A stretch of DNA of 64,000 bases from Escherichia coli (lineage in GTDB: Bacteria > Pseudomonadota > Gammaproteobacteria > Enterobacterales > Enterobacteriaceae): the NCBI RefSeq assembly GCF_003991155.1, contig NZ_CP031297.1; one strand, given 5' to 3'. How positions within the stretch are numbered: position 1 is the stretch's first letter; every line of letters starts with the position of its first letter. Below the pieces are notes generated by a model. It did not search any database. It was not told the origin of the DNA and saw only the letters and a program-made list of their open reading frames with translations. Shown here piece after piece: positions 3,973 to 18,329 of the stretch. Made by a program: the position numbers and the translations under genes.

Positions 3973-4581
3973 ATGAAAACGATAAAGCGGTTCATCGTAT
4001 GGGTGAATTACGGTCTTGAGGGTTGGAGCATTTTCGGATCGAGCGATGACTGGGATGAAGCGGTATCCATCCGTTCGGAAGCGATAGACGAATGCAATAT
4101 TGATGAGGAAGACATCATCTTGGCAGAAAACAAAAACGAGCTGGTGGTAAAACCTGCGGCCAAGCAAATGACGGAGTGGCACCGGGAACTGGAAGCCGTC
4201 CTTATGACCTTGGATGACTGCCAGATGGAATGTGACGGCATGACATGGGCAGTAAGCCACCTACTCAATGACGCGGGTGTACCTCATGACTGCATGTATG
4301 GTTTTGTGCGAAACGAACAGACCAAGGACATCGTGACACCGCATTTCTGGGTTGTCCTGGATGATGGGTGGTTGGTGGATCTGAGGCTACGCATGTGGCT
4401 TGGCGATCACGACAACATTCCTCACGGGGTATTCCATCCCGATAACGAGCCAGGATTTTTCTACAAGGGAGACCCCGTTCAAAACCATAAAGGGATGAGA
4501 CTGGGCAAAGCCGTCCTGGACATCATGACCGACGGAAAAATTTCACATGTGAAAGTTCCTGAACGACAAGACGGAGAGTAA
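3973..4581 (+). CDS. hypothetical protein
   Basis: 202-aa ORF with RBS; no recognisable motif. Confidence 0.5.
   Translation: MKTIKRFIVWVNYGLEGWSIFGSSDDWDEAVSIRSEAIDECNIDEEDIILAENKNELVVKPAAKQMTEWHRELEAVLMTLDDCQMECDGMTWAVSHLLNDAGVPHDCMYGFVRNEQTKDIVTPHFWVVLDDGWLVDLRLRMWLGDHDNIPHGVFHPDNEPGFFYKGDPVQNHKGMRLGKAVLDIMTDGKISHVKVPERQDGE
4540..4555. promoter_or_regulatory. parS-like palindrome TTTCACATGTGAAA (family copy, imperfect flanks)
   Basis: Core palindrome inside 3' end of ORF 3973..4581. Confidence 0.5.
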
Positions 4582-5635: not shown

Positions 5636-5727
5636 TCTGGATTGAATTAGGGTTGCCCGAATTGGGCAGCTAGGCGGGGTTGCATTTTTGAAAAGTCCTG
5701 TACGCTGGTTGGTATAGGAGGTGAATA

Positions 5728-6201
5728 GTGGCCCAGCTTAAACATAACCGCTTCGTCATGTTGGGGTCCTTGGTAGCGACGGTCGTAGCTGCTGCGAATG
5801 GCTTGAGTTTTCTCACCCTTATGGCTGGTGGAATGACCCTTATCCAGTTCATGGCTTGGAAGCAACAAGATGCTGTCCGTAGCCGGTTTAAAGCTGCGAA
5901 GGATGCGTTTGAAGCGTTGAACGTTATTGCGTTCGACAAGCACTGGGTAGGTTCAACCGCGACGGTCGCCAAAGTGTCGAACATGATCACTCCGCCCGAA
6001 CGACTGGATAAGCCCTGGGCGGTGCAAGTTCTGGCCGTAACCAAAGGTGGGACGTGGTTCGCAGTGGATCTGCAAGTGACCGGCACTGACAAGGTTCAGA
6101 TGCTTAGCCTCCACCAGCTTAGTGAAAAGGCGGCAAAGACCATGCTGGCCTTCGACCTCGAAGTGTATGAAAAATTTTTCGGAAAACCTGATGTTGCATG
6201 A
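5728..6201 (+). CDS. hypothetical membrane protein (GTG start)
   Basis: 157 aa, hydrophobic N-terminal segments, RBS AGGAGG. Confidence 0.45.
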   Translation: MAQLKHNRFVMLGSLVATVVAAANGLSFLTLMAGGMTLIQFMAWKQQDAVRSRFKAAKDAFEALNVIAFDKHWVGSTATVAKVSNMITPPERLDKPWAVQVLAVTKGGTWFAVDLQVTGTDKVQMLSLHQLSEKAAKTMLAFDLEVYEKFFGKPDVA

Positions 6202-6505
6202 GGACAATGTGATGGAAAAAGTCAAAAGCGTAGATGCCGTGGAGTTCACGGCAGCAGATAAGAAGGCGATGACCCATGCGGCATACGCCCAGTGTTTCTT
6301 CATTCTGGCCCAAGTGATGGCATTCCCTTCCCTAGGGGTGGCTGGCGCTATGGTTGCTGCTCTGTGCGGCATGATGCCGTGGTTGACCAAGTTCGCCAAA
6401 GAGGCTCCATCGAAAGCCTTTGGCATGGTGATGGCTTCACTCTGCCTTGCTCCTGTGTACGGGAAACTCTGTGAGCTGGTGGTCCACGCGATTCAGGGAG
6501 CTTGA
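6191..6505 (+). CDS. hypothetical membrane protein
   Basis: ~104 aa from internal ATG of ORF 6122..6505; hydrophobic. Confidence 0.35.
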   Translation: MLHEDNVMEKVKSVDAVEFTAADKKAMTHAAYAQCFFILAQVMAFPSLGVAGAMVAALCGMMPWLTKFAKEAPSKAFGMVMASLCLAPVYGKLCELVVHAIQGA

Positions 6506-6509
6506 GCTT

Positions 6510-7364
6510 ATGGGGGTAGTACGAGTTCCCTACCTCTTGGCTGAGCTGAAAGAACGCGGATGTGCTGATGAATCTGCTCTGGCGCAGGTTATGCAGCCTG
6601 GATGCCGAATTGGAGAGGAAGACCTACGGAAGTTGGCCGCAAATTTAGGGCTTGAAGTTTCTGAGCTGGCACCAGCGCCAGAGAACGCGGCCAACACCCG
6701 GTTCAAAGCAAAGCTGAGAGGAGGTTTGGCCTCCTTTCTTTTTGAGTACGACGGCTGTTTCCGACATGCCGAAGGCTCCAGCCATGCAGAAATGTTGGGT
6801 ATCGAGCAAGAAGACGATATTGGTCTTCCGAGTCGAGCTGCTGACGCCATGCTCCTGGAAAAGATGCTTTACCAGGTAATCGCTCGGGCTAAGTACATGC
6901 TCGGCAAAATCGACAGCAAGTTTGTCAGGTCAGAACAAGCAATCGAGTTCCGTGAGCAACTTGCTCCTGGGATCTTCAGGCCAGGGTACAGAGGTTTCCG
7001 ATTCAAGGAGGCTGCCGCTGGTGATTTGCCTACAGTCATGATTGACGGTCGGAAGTTCAATTGCGTTGCCAGTATAGCCAGAGCGCATGGACTTGATCCG
7101 GTAACGGTGCGTAGGCGCATTGCGGACACAAGGAAGGCCGCAGACAAACTCTCCAATGATGAGTGGAAACTCATCCTCGCCAAGAAAAAAGGTAAAGGGA
7201 AACCCTTCACCTATCTGGACAGGACCTACAGCAACATTGCCCAGTTCTGTCGTGAGCATCAGCTCAACACCAACCTTGTTTACCAGAAAGTCAAAGACCG
7301 GGCTGATAGCGCTGATGAAGAGTTCTGGGGACAGATAATCGAAACATGCAAAAGGAAAGACTAA
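6510..7364 (+). CDS. hypothetical protein
   Basis: ~284 aa from ATG 6510 of ORF 6447..7364. Confidence 0.45.
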   Translation: MGVVRVPYLLAELKERGCADESALAQVMQPGCRIGEEDLRKLAANLGLEVSELAPAPENAANTRFKAKLRGGLASFLFEYDGCFRHAEGSSHAEMLGIEQEDDIGLPSRAADAMLLEKMLYQVIARAKYMLGKIDSKFVRSEQAIEFREQLAPGIFRPGYRGFRFKEAAAGDLPTVMIDGRKFNCVASIARAHGLDPVTVRRRIADTRKAADKLSNDEWKLILAKKKGKGKPFTYLDRTYSNIAQFCREHQLNTNLVYQKVKDRADSADEEFWGQIIETCKRKD

Positions 7365-8323
7365 TGGCAGAAAACAAAGAGATCCCCTGGGAGAAAGAGC
7401 TCATTGAGAAGTACATGTTCACCCTGCATAAAGAGCAGGTGAAAGACCGGCGCTGGCGGACCATGTTGCGTGTGCTTCGCGCATCAGGTTTCGTGCTTCT
7501 CATGATCGGCTTCATCATTTTGGCATCTAATCCGGGTGGGATGCCGTGGCAAAGCGCCAAGGCTGGAGCCCCTCACACCGCGTATATCAACATCCGTGGT
7601 GAAATTGCTGCTGGCACACTGGCCGATGCTGATCACCTTATCCCGTCCATCCAAGCAGCATTCGACAACCCGAATTCACAAGCTGTCGTGCTTCGCATAA
7701 ACAGCCCTGGCGGTAGCCCGGTTCAAGCAGGACGGATTTATGAAGAAGTGAAGGCGCAGCGAGCCCTTCATCCGGAGAAAAAGGTCTACGCCATCATTGA
7801 TGACATCGGTGCCTCTGGCGGTTATTACATCGCCTCTGCTGCGGATGAAATCTATGCTGACCGCGCCAGTCTTGTCGGTTCTATCGGCGTCATTAGCTCA
7901 GGGTTTGGATTCACCGGCTTGATGGACAGGCTCGGCATCGAGCGCCGGGCAATCACTTCCGGAGAGCACAAAGCGCTTCTCGACCCATTCTCCCCTCTTA
8001 CCTCTGATATGAAGAAATTCTGGGAGGGCGTTCTATCGAAAACCCACCAGCAGTTCATCGAACGAGTGAAGGCTGGGCGGGGTGATCGACTGAAAGACGC
8101 CCCAGAGGTGTTTTCTGGATTGCTCTGGAACGGGGAGCAGGCCAAAGAAATTGGGCTGATTGATGGCCTGGGGAGTTTGAACTCCGTGGCGCGAGACGTC
8201 ATCCACCAGAGCAACTTGGTGGACTACACACCAACCGAAGACATCATCCGGCGACTGACCCAACGAGCGAAGCTCGAAGCCAGTTCCTTCGTGCAAGAAC
8301 TCAGCGCTGTGAAAGTTTACTGA
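7346..8323 (+). CDS. S49-family peptidase (SppA-like, signal peptide peptidase)
   Basis: 325 aa; TM anchor then IDDIGASGGYYIASAAD serine-nucleophile region typical of SppA/ClpP-fold S49. Confidence 0.8.
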   Translation: MQKERLMAENKEIPWEKELIEKYMFTLHKEQVKDRRWRTMLRVLRASGFVLLMIGFIILASNPGGMPWQSAKAGAPHTAYINIRGEIAAGTLADADHLIPSIQAAFDNPNSQAVVLRINSPGGSPVQAGRIYEEVKAQRALHPEKKVYAIIDDIGASGGYYIASAADEIYADRASLVGSIGVISSGFGFTGLMDRLGIERRAITSGEHKALLDPFSPLTSDMKKFWEGVLSKTHQQFIERVKAGRGDRLKDAPEVFSGLLWNGEQAKEIGLIDGLGSLNSVARDVIHQSNLVDYTPTEDIIRRLTQRAKLEASSFVQELSAVKVY

Positions 8324-8338
8324 TAGGAGCAGTTTGAC

Positions 8339-9199
8339 ATGACAGAACAAAGTACCAAATCACTACGTCTCGGGGTTTTTGCCGCCATTATTTTGGGGCT
8401 CGTAGGAACCGGGTTCGGAATCTACCAGCTCGTGAAAGAGAAGGATCTGGCGCAAGAGATCGCCAACGTGAAGTCCACGGTCAACCAGGTGAAAGATGCC
8501 GAAGGCGTCACCTTCAAAAGCAAGGCAGAGTTTGAGGCTGCTGTGGCCGAAAGCATCAATAAGTTTGTCGCGCAGAAACAACAAGCCGACATCGATCAGA
8601 AGTATGCCCAGTTCGAGGCGGCACCTGAAAAGGTCGAAGACGGCAAACACATCTATGGGGACCTTGGTGCCCGATTCACGCTGGTGGAGTTCTCTGATAT
8701 GGAGTGCCCCTTCTGTAAGCAATTCCACGACACGCCCAAGCAAATTGTGGATGCCAGTAAAGGCAATGTGAATTGGCAGTGGAAGCACATGCCTCTCGAC
8801 TTCCATAACCCGGCAGCTCACAAGGAAGCGTTGGCCGCTGAATGTATTGCTGAACAGAAGGGCAACCGTGGCTTCTGGGTCTTCGTGAATGAGATTTTCC
8901 ATCACAGCAAAGGCAACGGTGCCGGTGTTTCTGACTTGGCCTCTGTTGTCACGGGTGTTGGTGCTGATCTGGATGCTTTCCGTGAGTGTCTCAGCTCTGG
9001 CAAGCACGAAGATAAAGTTCAAGCTGACATCCAGAAAGCCAAGAGTTACGGCGTTAATGGTACTCCAGCAACCTTTGTTGTAGACAACCAGACAGGCAAG
9101 AGTCAGCTACTCGGTGGTGCTCAACCGGCACAAGCCATCATGGCGGTGATGCGAAAAATGATGATTGAGTCGCAACAAGACGACTCAGCGAACCAATAA
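8339..9199 (+). CDS. DsbA-like thiol:disulfide oxidoreductase, membrane-anchored
   Basis: 286 aa; N-terminal TM, CPFC active-site motif in thioredoxin-like domain. Confidence 0.75.
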   Translation: MTEQSTKSLRLGVFAAIILGLVGTGFGIYQLVKEKDLAQEIANVKSTVNQVKDAEGVTFKSKAEFEAAVAESINKFVAQKQQADIDQKYAQFEAAPEKVEDGKHIYGDLGARFTLVEFSDMECPFCKQFHDTPKQIVDASKGNVNWQWKHMPLDFHNPAAHKEALAAECIAEQKGNRGFWVFVNEIFHHSKGNGAGVSDLASVVTGVGADLDAFRECLSSGKHEDKVQADIQKAKSYGVNGTPATFVVDNQTGKSQLLGGAQPAQAIMAVMRKMMIESQQDDSANQ

Positions 9200-9201
9200 A
9201 A

Positions 9202-9219
9202 ACTTTCACATGTGAAAGT
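9202..9219. promoter_or_regulatory. parS-like 18-bp perfect palindrome ACTTTCACATGTGAAAGT
   Basis: Exact; 14 bp upstream of ORF 9233. Confidence 0.6.
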
Positions 9220-9232
9220 GGAGTGAGAACTG

Positions 9233-9661
9233 ATGATCAAGATTACAACTAAATTGGGGTGCCTTCTGGCGGGGCTGCTTGTCCTGTCGGCTTGCTCAAG
9301 CGTCCCTCAGACAAGCAACGAATACACGAAAGCCCTGGATGATACCAAACAGGTATGTGCTGCCTGTGCTCTGGTTGGTAATGACCTGCTGGTTGCCCTC
9401 AACAAGTCATGCGACAAACCCATAACCCCGGAGACTCTAACCAGCGTCATGAACAGTAACTCGATGTTTGCCGCCATGATGGCAATTAACTCCATTGGTG
9501 GAACCGACCTTTATCAGGTTTACCGTGATGCGGCTATCGACACCCTGCGATGCAATGAGATGGACACTTGGCCTGAACGGACCAAGGTGCGTTTCCAGCA
9601 GCCCGACATGCAAAAGGCGCTGGCCTTGAGGGTTTCTGTCAGACAGCAGAATGCAAATTAA
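9233..9661 (+). CDS. putative lipoprotein
   Basis: 142 aa; signal peptide with lipobox LSAC. Confidence 0.55.
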   Translation: MIKITTKLGCLLAGLLVLSACSSVPQTSNEYTKALDDTKQVCAACALVGNDLLVALNKSCDKPITPETLTSVMNSNSMFAAMMAINSIGGTDLYQVYRDAAIDTLRCNEMDTWPERTKVRFQQPDMQKALALRVSVRQQNAN

Positions 9662-9678
9662 CTTTCACATGTGAAAGT
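9661..9678. promoter_or_regulatory. parS-like 18-bp perfect palindrome ACTTTCACATGTGAAAGT
   Basis: Exact; overlaps stop of ORF 9233..9661, upstream of 9719. Confidence 0.6.
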
Positions 9679-9718
9679 CAGGTCCCTCAGGGGCCTGATT
9701 TCACTATGAGGTGTACCA

Positions 9719-18226: not shown

Positions 18227-18241
18227 TGCCCAAAATGGGCG
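18227..18241. promoter_or_regulatory. TGCCCAAAATGGGCG motif (third cis-element family)
   Basis: GCCC-N5-GGGC inverted repeat. Confidence 0.4.
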
Positions 18242-18311: not shown

Positions 18312-18329
18312 ACTTTCACATGTGAAAGT
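18312..18329. promoter_or_regulatory. parS-like 18-bp perfect palindrome ACTTTCACATGTGAAAGT
   Basis: Exact; 2 bp upstream of ORF 18332. Confidence 0.6.

Follow-up and report, generated by a model that had tools for sequence, protein, structure and literature searches.

Plasmid-encoded S49 peptidase, DsbA and DsbC homologues under AcaCD control in an IncC plasmid: a putative helper set for conjugation

The window analyzed here, a stretch of 64,000 nucleotides, corresponds by database comparison to the opening 64 kb of a conjugative plasmid of the IncC (A/C2) group. This group, which mobilises SGI1-type islands, is a major vehicle for carbapenemase and multidrug resistance genes. Encoded on the plus strand are three putative envelope enzymes: an S49 peptidase (sppA, vcrx015; 7364..8323), a DsbA-like oxidoreductase (dsbA, vcrx016; 8339..9199) and a DsbC-like disulfide isomerase (dsbC or dsbP, vcrx077; 60935..61642). 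A preliminary description of the window had named SppA-like, DsbA-like and DsbC-like ORFs, and these exist as claimed, with family matches far above chance. It had also assigned sppA and dsbA to a cargo block, a label contradicted by several observations. All three genes are named in the literature as core IncA/IncC backbone genes, the sppA-dsbA region is found in 1078 PLSDB plasmids, the two genes lie in an AcaCD-activated operon, and GC content is flat (0.50–0.55) across the region, with no foreign-island signature. The genes are long-annotated backbone genes of IncC (A/C) resistance plasmids, and much of what follows is largely known biology.

The sppA-dsbA operon is located a few kb from repA, with oriT beside mobI, just upstream of repA. 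Three ORFs precede sppA on the same strand: vcrx012 (5728-6201), with an N-terminal hydrophobic segment; vcrx013 (6212-6505), a small membrane protein; and vcrx014 (6510-7364), with no hydrophobic segment. Homologues of these three genes sit 5′ of the S49-DsbA pair in related plasmids. None belongs to a Pfam family, and a Pfam search of the ORFs neighbouring sppA-dsbA matched none either. A literature search on vcrx014-017 likewise returned no matches. Terminator-like and promoter-like sites that might split the operon occur at or below the shuffle expectation, and an Rfam search of the interval 3.5–14.5 kb matched no structured RNA. A 219-aa antisense ORF (8363..9022) lies wholly inside dsbA and was set aside as lacking support. 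Anti-phage defence was also considered as a role for the operon and dropped, with 0 PADLOC matches for 10 proteins.

Upstream of vcrx012 lies a binding box for AcaCD, the master activator of plasmid transfer (5649..5677, plus strand; core TGCCCGAATTGGGCA at 5654-5668), at the promoter that reads through vcrx012 to sppA and dsbA. Conversion of the published pVCR94 transcription start site (6529-6531) places the start of this operon at about 5712-5714 in the window; the offset of 817 used for the conversion derives from gene coordinates, and the published box is at pVCR94 6466-6494. A second box core, TGTCCAAATTGGGCT (60845..60859, plus strand), was found by pattern match upstream of dsbC. It is preceded by a terminator-like GC hairpin with a T-run, aaagcccggttcagaccgggctttttttt (60805..60830, plus strand), which was read from the sequence, lies 3′ of an Ig-like ORF and separates that ORF from the dsbC promoter. 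Overall, the pattern search gave 11 matches, versus 2.4 expected. In pVCR94, ChIP-exo peaks, motifs and start sites mapped by 5′-RACE are documented upstream of both vcrx012 and dsbC, and RNA-seq values rise upon AcaCD induction from 0 to 270 for vcrx015, from 0 to 1262 for vcrx016 and from 0 to 653 for dsbC. Hence, a box about 60 bp 5′ of the start site and AcaCD-dependent mRNA, the hallmarks of the AcaCD regulon, are both found, with the transcript data coming from the orthologous pVCR94 sites. The boxes are observed in the window itself and transcription is known from pVCR94; together they place sppA, dsbA and dsbC under AcaCD-activated promoters. Under this shared control, the three products are made at the same time as the F-type (MPF-F) type IV secretion system (T4SS).

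The S49 peptidase gene had been given a start at 7346. The gene is there, but a start at 7364 is likelier: this ATG overlaps the stop codon of the upstream ORF (TAATG), AAGGAAAG is found just 5′ of it, and public annotation agrees. The predicted product of 319 aa matches the Peptidase_S49 profile (Pfam PF01343) with E=2e-35. Its match to the SppA_dom model (NCBIfam TIGR00706) is marginal (155.6 bits; cutoff 155.45), and its scores with the equivalog models for full-length SppA and SohB are far under their cutoffs. The structure of Bacillus subtilis SppA (BsSppA; 3RST) aligns with E=4.5e-31 and 30% identity over 181 residues. Ser151 and Lys203, spaced by 52 residues, align with Ser147 and position 199 of BsSppA, and neither residue varies among 8 homologues (28–72% identity), those of IncHI plasmids included. 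The protein contains no Cys. A single N-terminal hydrophobic segment (residues ~40-58) follows a basic stretch, in agreement with the earlier proposal of a membrane-anchored peptidase; the protease domain would be extracytoplasmic behind this anchor, its orientation being a prediction. With BsSppA (3RST/4KWB), E. coli SppA and SohB, the IncC protein has in common a single S49 domain, a Ser-Lys dyad and an N-terminal anchor. Unlike them, it is plasmid-encoded and co-regulated with conjugation. The pilin-processing peptidases of T4SSs (RP4 TraF, TrhF/TrhP) are likewise plasmid-encoded membrane enzymes of the Ser-Lys type tied to conjugation, but they belong to family S26. Since TrhF is already encoded in the IncC dsbC-traU operon, the S49 enzyme represents an additional protease.

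The dsbA product, of 286 aa, is a membrane-anchored oxidoreductase of the alpha-DsbA/PaDsbA2 class. It comprises a transmembrane segment (residues 8-32), a helical stalk (~34-90), a CPFC motif (123-126), a second Cys pair (169/217) and a cis-Pro loop (T242-P243). Profile matches are to Pfam Thioredoxin_4 (1.5e-17) and DSBA (8e-17), and the best sequence match is PaDsbA2 (4N30; E=1e-28). An AlphaFold2 model has an overall pLDDT of 85, rising above 95 for residues 90-280 and falling to 48-81 in the stalk. [quoted passage not shown] Across 41 sequences, neither the CPFC cysteines (C123 and C126) nor T242-P243 vary, and C169 and C217 are likewise invariant; the latter pair lines up with the cysteines of LVEC/LEKC in PaDsbA2 (a four-Cys signature). 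Judged by their catalytic residues, the two IncC proteins appear to be an active S49 peptidase with its dyad intact and a DsbA-class oxidoreductase. The IncC enzyme has a CPFC/CXXC motif, a Thr-cisPro loop and a second, structural disulfide in the helical domain, all of which it shares with PaDsbA2 and with the alpha-DsbA class (Wolbachia alpha-DsbA1). What sets the IncC enzyme apart from PaDsbA2 is its N-terminal anchor, a helical stalk of ~60 residues, its location on a plasmid and its regulation by AcaCD. Conceptually similar cases, in which one machine has its own extra DsbA-family enzyme, are Legionella DsbA2 (Dot/Icm T4SS), Salmonella BcfH (fimbrial operon) and ScsC. The match of the IncC model to BcfH and ScsC covers both the N-terminal helix and the catalytic domain; all three enzymes are soluble dimers or trimers, whereas IncC DsbA is membrane-anchored.

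E. coli DsbB reportedly fails to reoxidise PaDsbA2, the nearest relative with a solved structure. No plasmid-borne DsbB-like partner was found among the neighbours of sppA and dsbA in the operon. The small membrane protein vcrx013 (97 aa, 4 Cys) was considered as a DsbB/VKOR-like reoxidase and rejected, its Cys residues not being conserved in homologues. The same is true of the Cys residues of the lipoprotein vcrx017 (CAAC motif), which is moreover not a constant neighbour, while vcrx019 and vcrx020 are without periplasmic Cys pairs.

The third gene, dsbC, stands at the head of a T4SS operon (dsbC-traC-trhF-traW-traU) that is driven by an AcaCD promoter of its own, which bears out the gene's earlier placement within that operon. 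The dsbC product, of 235 aa, has an N-terminal hydrophobic signal peptide ending in AHA and a CAVC motif at residues 124-127, and is a periplasmic dimeric disulfide isomerase. Profile matches include DsbC_N (4.6e-12) and Thioredoxin_2 (2.4e-9). Residues 20-235 are 100% identical to chain A of PDB 4ML1 (216 residues, E=5.6e-144). PDB entries 4ML1, 4ML6 and 4MLY represent DsbP of IncA/C plasmids (Premkumar et al. 2014 J Biol Chem 289:2563). The window gene thus encodes DsbP, with the same CAVC motif, the same place upstream of traC and no sequence difference. DsbP is said to form a domain-swapped, inverted V-shaped dimer, to be more reducing than EcDsbC and to have DsbG-like properties. It has already been proposed as a conjugation-specific folding enzyme.

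Other F-like T4SSs have comparable accessories. TrbB/TraF of F, HtdT/DsbC of R27, s054 of SXT and Orf206 of Rts1 are periplasmic CXXC proteins encoded, like DsbP, within or beside tra operons, and their presumed clients are the Cys-rich proteins TraN, TraU and TraH. TrbB differs from DsbP in being monomeric and lacking the DsbC_N domain. Transfer of F, R27, SXT and Rts1 relies to differing degrees on thioredoxin-like genes. F trbB and R27 dsbC are needed only in dsbC-null hosts, which makes redundancy with host Dsb enzymes likely. Deletion of SXT s054 (dsbC) abolishes transfer independently of the host; attempts at complementing this phenotype failed, which leaves room for a polar effect on traC. 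The requirement for Rts1 Orf206 is also host-independent. It is accepted for F-like T4SSs that mating-pair proteins rich in Cys are the clients of a plasmid-borne disulfide isomerase. TraN, TraU and TraH of F are presumed clients of TrbB, and the matching IncC proteins TraN and TraU contain 34 and 12 Cys, respectively. A role for DsbP in maturing Cys-rich T4SS proteins, by analogy with these systems, is well grounded; for the DsbA-like enzyme such a role is plausible, and for the S49 peptidase it is speculative. In the literature found, no link of the IncC S49 peptidase to T4SS or adhesin maturation has been demonstrated. The preliminary description had envisaged dedicated maturation of Cys-containing T4SS or adhesin components. 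Its T4SS part fits DsbP; as for its adhesin part, the Ig-like putative adhesin contains only 8 Cys in 1828 residues.

How widely is this arrangement retained? An S49 gene followed by a DsbA gene is seen in 6 of the 7 divergent A/C-like lineages sampled; one Aeromonas A/C-like lineage retains dsbA and lacks the S49 gene. A/C-like plasmids of marine, Comamonas and enteric origin keep the pair in synteny with an AcaCD-type promoter, at ~45–55% DsbA identity, and the AcaCD box together with TTGCAT is kept in divergent plasmids at a DsbA identity of ~52–55%. The two genes also occur in resistance-free environmental relatives. Beyond the A/C-like group, the relaxase/T4CP operon of R27, IncHI1B and IncHI2 contains an S49 peptidase gene immediately 3′ of traJ. 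In R27 this gene spans record positions 98869-100050, and DsbA- and DsbC-family genes are found beside Tra1. Rts1-like plasmids encode a homologous membrane DsbA adjoining mobH, a gene that the text of the Rts1 deletion study does not mention. The synteny of the S49-DsbA pair, the conservation of its promoter and the parallel IncHI sets, as they emerge from sequence comparison, are the new addition here. The value of these findings is comparative: they indicate that one and the same trio turns up repeatedly in plasmids of the MOBH type. The T4SS of SXT/R391 elements is the closest related one and its TraN and TraU homologues are equally Cys-rich, and sppA and dsbA are absent from the core genes common to SXT/R391 ICEs and IncA/IncC plasmids.

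On balance, we lean towards a model in which the three products form a helper set, co-expressed under AcaCD, that supports assembly of the F-type T4SS. The PaDsbA2-like DsbA, at the inner membrane, would introduce disulfides into exported Cys-rich mating-pair proteins, chiefly TraN and TraU. The soluble periplasmic DsbP dimer would reshuffle wrong disulfides, as do TrbB in F and HtdT/DsbC in R27. The tethered, one-domain S49 protease would most likely clear cleaved leader peptides or misassembled exported proteins, debris that may build up upon the sudden overproduction of pilin and ~15 exported Tra proteins. We infer the substrates, the division of labour and the contribution of sppA and dsbA to transfer. 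A literature search returned neither mutant phenotypes nor biochemical work on sppA or dsbA of IncC plasmids, and two TraDIS papers from the Burrus lab do not mention these genes. Also weighing against the model are the likely redundancy with host Dsb enzymes and the failure to find a DsbB-like partner among the operon neighbours. An essential role is disfavoured by the SXT/R391 elements, which do without sppA and dsbA, by the Aeromonas lineage without the S49 gene, and by an IS1 insertion in the dsbA gene of one IncC plasmid, which came from a clinical E. coli. The set makes most sense as a helper or robustness module of a broad-host-range plasmid, rather than as an essential part of the T4SS.

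Known S49 enzymes, SppA and SohB, are housekeeping envelope proteases, and sppA and dsbA, with the small membrane proteins encoded beside them, might accordingly make up a general envelope-stress or fitness module without specificity for T4SS parts, which buffers the host envelope during the secretion burst or acts in the new transconjugant during establishment. Consistent with this idea, a hydrophobic segment or a lipobox is predicted in 6 of the 10 products encoded from vcrx012 to vcrx021, no tra-like family is represented among the 10, and the operon adjoins repA/mobI rather than the tra clusters. AcaCD also switches on many genes unrelated to the mating pore, the relevance of which, in the words of a 2015 review, “remains to be determined”. 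The position of the IncHI S49 gene in the relaxase/T4CP operon and that of the Rts1-like DsbA gene beside mobH point instead to a tie with the transfer apparatus, and we regard the envelope explanation as a doubtful possibility. It would be much more surprising if the enzymes were cargo of benefit to the host, folding beta-lactamases, virulence factors or other host and resistance proteins instead of transfer proteins. Many exported proteins of this kind do, as a rule, require DsbA-type enzymes, but the three genes are backbone rather than accessory, uniform in GC, present in resistance-free environmental relatives and, in the pVCR94 data, silent without AcaCD and induced together with the tra genes; this possibility we consider very remote.

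A further idea is that sppA and dsbA are dispensable hitch-hikers, kept by linkage to replication and partition functions and with no measurable effect on transfer or maintenance, host DsbA, DsbC and SppA sufficing in enterobacteria. The exclusion of both genes from the set common with SXT/R391, the loss of the S49 gene in Aeromonas, the IS1 insertion in dsbA and the redundancy of the F and R27 thioredoxin genes with host dsbC would all fit. However, the catalytic residues are invariant down to 28–35% identity, gene order and the AcaCD-type promoter persist in marine, Comamonas and enteric plasmids with proteins only about half identical, and parallel sets exist in IncHI plasmids. Such conservation indicates purifying selection for function, and we think hitch-hiking improbable.

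Returning to the helper-set model, it is worth asking whether the S49 enzyme has a more specific task. One tentative extension, which we hold to be unlikely, is that it is an unrecognised component of MOBH/MPF-F (“H-type”) conjugation, performing a proteolytic step and paired with a tethered, highly oxidising alpha-DsbA. The step could be the clearance of the long pilin leader, residues 1 to about 39 of TraA, or the processing or quality control of membrane Tra proteins. This would explain the AcaCD-controlled S49-DsbA pair, the S49 gene after traJ in IncHI plasmids and the DsbA gene beside mobH in Rts1-like plasmids. Should the S49 peptidase and the PaDsbA2-like oxidase prove necessary for TraN/TraU assembly, they would offer conjugation inhibitors plasmid-specific targets that can be reached in the periplasm, and their presence would explain the independence of a broad-host-range plasmid from the Dsb machinery of its host.

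All three genes singled out in the preliminary description, for an S49 peptidase, a DsbA-like protein and a DsbC-like protein, are real, as family matches confirm. The S49 ORF (sppA, 7364–8323, plus strand) matches Peptidase_S49 (E=2e-35) and the B. subtilis SppA structure (E=4.5e-31), and barely passes the SppA_dom cutoff (155.6 versus 155.45 bits). Its product has a single hydrophobic segment (residues 40–58) and zero cysteines. Ser151 and Lys203 align to the BsSppA dyad, Ser147/Lys199, and are unchanged in 8 of 8 homologues with identities as low as 28%. The ORF stands as first described, but for its start we prefer 7364 to 7346, because the ATG there overlaps the stop codon of the preceding ORF (TAATG) and is preceded by AAGGAAAG just 5′.

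The dsbA product (8339–9199, plus strand) comprises an N-terminal transmembrane segment, two long helices and a thioredoxin/DsbA domain, in which C123 and C126 (CPFC), the Thr-cisPro loop and a second Cys pair (169/217) are invariant in 41 homologues. Its nearest solved relative, both by sequence (E=1e-28) and by fold (TM 0.86, using a predicted model), is P. aeruginosa DsbA2. That enzyme belongs to the class of four-cysteine α-DsbAs. At −67 mV it is extremely oxidising, and E. coli DsbB reportedly does not reoxidise it. A search among the plasmid neighbours for a dedicated DsbB-like partner found none: vcrx013 was ruled out on the basis of cysteines not conserved among homologues, and the lipoprotein vcrx017 on that of a CXXC not conserved. 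The latter ORF (9233–9661) encodes a predicted lipoprotein of 142 aa, with lipobox LSAC (Cys21), a CAAC motif and two more Cys. It weakly matches the EexN entry-exclusion lipoprotein family (0.003; N-terminal residues 9–46 only) and is not conserved as a dsbA neighbour in divergent relatives.

The third protein (60935–61642, plus strand) combines DsbC_N with a thioredoxin domain containing CAVC, and is 100% identical to PDB entries 4ML1, 4ML6 and 4MLY, named DsbP. Premkumar and colleagues crystallised it in 2014 as a disulfide isomerase of IncA/C plasmids. Both the genes and the idea about DsbC are already in the literature.

A search of PLSDB matched 7000–9700 of the window in 1078 plasmids, with at least 80% query coverage in 1045. 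Records with the best matches share the coordinates of the window, open with repA and carry the types IncC, MOBH and MPF-F, which identifies the window as the initial 64 kb of a conjugative IncC (A/C2) plasmid. The gene order is repA, a long same-strand array, parAB, traI-traD, traLEKBVA, an Ig-like gene, dsbC and the start of traC. The Ig-like gene (55264/55288–60786, between traA and dsbC) encodes a Big-domain protein of ~1828–1832 aa with 8 Cys, and a terminator-like hairpin at 60805–60830 belongs to it; for its pKAZ3 homologue, a published study reports a promoting effect on IncA/C conjugation at 25 °C. GC content is flat across the sppA-dsbA region, and a defence-system search of the region returned zero matches. 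These features and the backbone status of the genes show that sppA and dsbA were mislabelled as "cargo". Host-benefit cargo is likewise contradicted by backbone status and by control through AcaCD, the plasmid's master transfer activator.

Evidence for this control comes from Carraro et al. (2014), whose pVCR94 dataset positions equal window positions + 817, so that sppA is vcrx015, dsbA vcrx016 and dsbC vcrx077. On the 5′ side of vcrx012 they mapped an AcaCD peak by ChIP-exo, a motif, and a transcription start by 5′-RACE, and they found another such set 5′ of dsbC. Their RNA-seq values rise from 0 in ΔacaCD to 270 (sppA), 1262 (dsbA) and 653 (dsbC) upon AcaCD induction. The boxes lie at 5654–5668 (TGCCCGAATTGGGCA) for the vcrx012-sppA-dsbA operon and at 60845–60859 (TGTCCAAATTGGGCT) for dsbC. 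In the window, the box pattern has 11 matches versus 2.4 expected, some near the traI and traL starts; within 5.7–12 kb, no terminators or promoters were found above chance. Together, the boxes, the published expression and the uninterrupted 5.7–12 kb stretch indicate that AcaCD co-induces the trio with the T4SS. A transfer-related role draws its strongest support from this co-induction, although a 2015 review states of such AcaCD-regulated genes of unassigned function that their relevance "remains to be determined".

On the most likely reading, the plasmid produces its own oxidative-folding pair upon AcaCD activation. The tethered α-DsbA, probably very oxidising, would form disulfides, and the soluble dimeric isomerase DsbP would correct them, above all in TraN and TraU; the tethered SppA-type protease would, while secretion surges, clear away leader peptides or exported proteins that have misassembled. 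Gene identities, motifs and regulation are shown; the clients and any need for the three enzymes are inferred. We consider the part assigned to DsbP likely, that of DsbA tentative, and that of the S49 peptidase rather unlikely. Among the IncC tra-region products, translated from a near-identical plasmid, TraN has 34 Cys and TraU 12 (3.6% of residues each), the Ig-like protein 8 in 1828 residues, TraK and TraH 4 each, TraV 3, and TraF 0. The TraN/TraU pattern mirrors that of the F plasmid, where TraN, TraU and TraH (22, 11 and 6 Cys) are presumed TrbB clients. The proposal that the trio matures Cys-containing T4SS or adhesin components is partly supported; the adhesin link is weak. Genetic precedent for plasmid thioredoxin-like genes is mixed: F trbB and R27 dsbC make a difference only in dsbC-null hosts, Rts1 orf206 and SXT s054 in dsbC+ hosts as well, but complementation of the s054 mutant failed.

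The trio might instead form a general envelope or establishment module, or its members might be dispensable hitch-hikers. Several observations speak against an essential role, among them the failure to find a DsbB-like partner. SXT/R391 ICEs have the T4SS most closely related to that of IncC, yet sppA and dsbA are outside the core gene set common to these ICEs and IncA/IncC plasmids. An Aeromonas lineage retains vcrx012-013 and dsbA but has lost the S49 gene. One IncC plasmid of a clinical E. coli (NZ_CP020049.1, locus ~2000–2780) is intact apart from an IS1 insertion inside dsbA, a natural knock-out usable for transfer tests. Our literature search, which lay outside the IncC conjugation TraDIS study, found no mutant data for IncC sppA or dsbA.

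On the other side stands conservation. Full-length DsbA-like homologues (44–94% identity) are abundant. Of seven divergent A/C-like lineages sampled, six have an S49 gene directly 5′ of dsbA (the pair occurs in Photobacterium, Comamonas, Marinobacterium, Marinomonas, TARA/JGI marine contigs and one Logan (SRA) contig). The backbone genes at these loci include ParA and ParB(KorB), in several cases also MobI, HU or TraI_2, and an AcaCD-type box with TTGCAT is kept 5′ of the vcrx012 homologue. In R27, IncHI1B and IncHI2 plasmids, a gene for an S49 peptidase that preserves the dyad stands directly 3′ of traJ (DUF4400), in the mobI-mobH-traD operon (R27 record, 98869–100050; comparison records L004, 8905–10041, and L005, 8962–10143). 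The IncHI1/IncHI1B/IncHI2 peptidase has an insertion of ~55–60 residues, and a NERD-domain gene follows 3′; we looked for a described function of this peptidase and found none. Next to Tra1, R27 also encodes a DsbA-family and a DsbC-like protein; annotations of other large conjugative plasmids include HtdT-type DsbC homologues, and Rts1-like plasmids have a membrane DsbA-like homologue (35–39% identity), divergently oriented beside mobH. In all, 3069 plasmids have an S49 homologue, 2802 of them typed conjugative; for the DsbC family the corresponding figures are 3495 and 3090. The trio is thus a recurring MOBH/MPF-F accessory, not an oddity of one element.

Finally, the window contains nine exact copies of a perfect 14-bp palindrome, TTTCACATGTGAAA (starting at 4541, 5620, 9204, 9663, 14978, 18314, 29358, 32773 and 50192), versus 0.34 expected even with two mismatches allowed. 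Most are intergenic; two overlap ORF 3′ ends. One copy precedes the sppA-dsbA operon's AcaCD box by 34 bp, two closely follow the stop codons of dsbA and vcrx017, one maps by coordinates ~63 bp 5′ of parA, and two lie 63–75 bp 5′ of other AcaCD-like boxes. An AcaCD-like box at 18227–18241 (3 mismatches), absent from the published pVCR94ΔX peak list, is followed 87 bp further by the copy at 18314–18327, with an ORF start (~18344) just 3′; this could be an extra AcaCD/ParB-controlled promoter or a chance match. Related plasmids conserve the palindrome, and in a Comamonas relative a different one, TTTTCGCATGCGAAAAA, occurs twice. The layout resembles that of the RK2 KorB operator, and ParB of sampled relatives has a KorB domain; the copies may serve as global operators or as parS sites of the ParB/KorB type.
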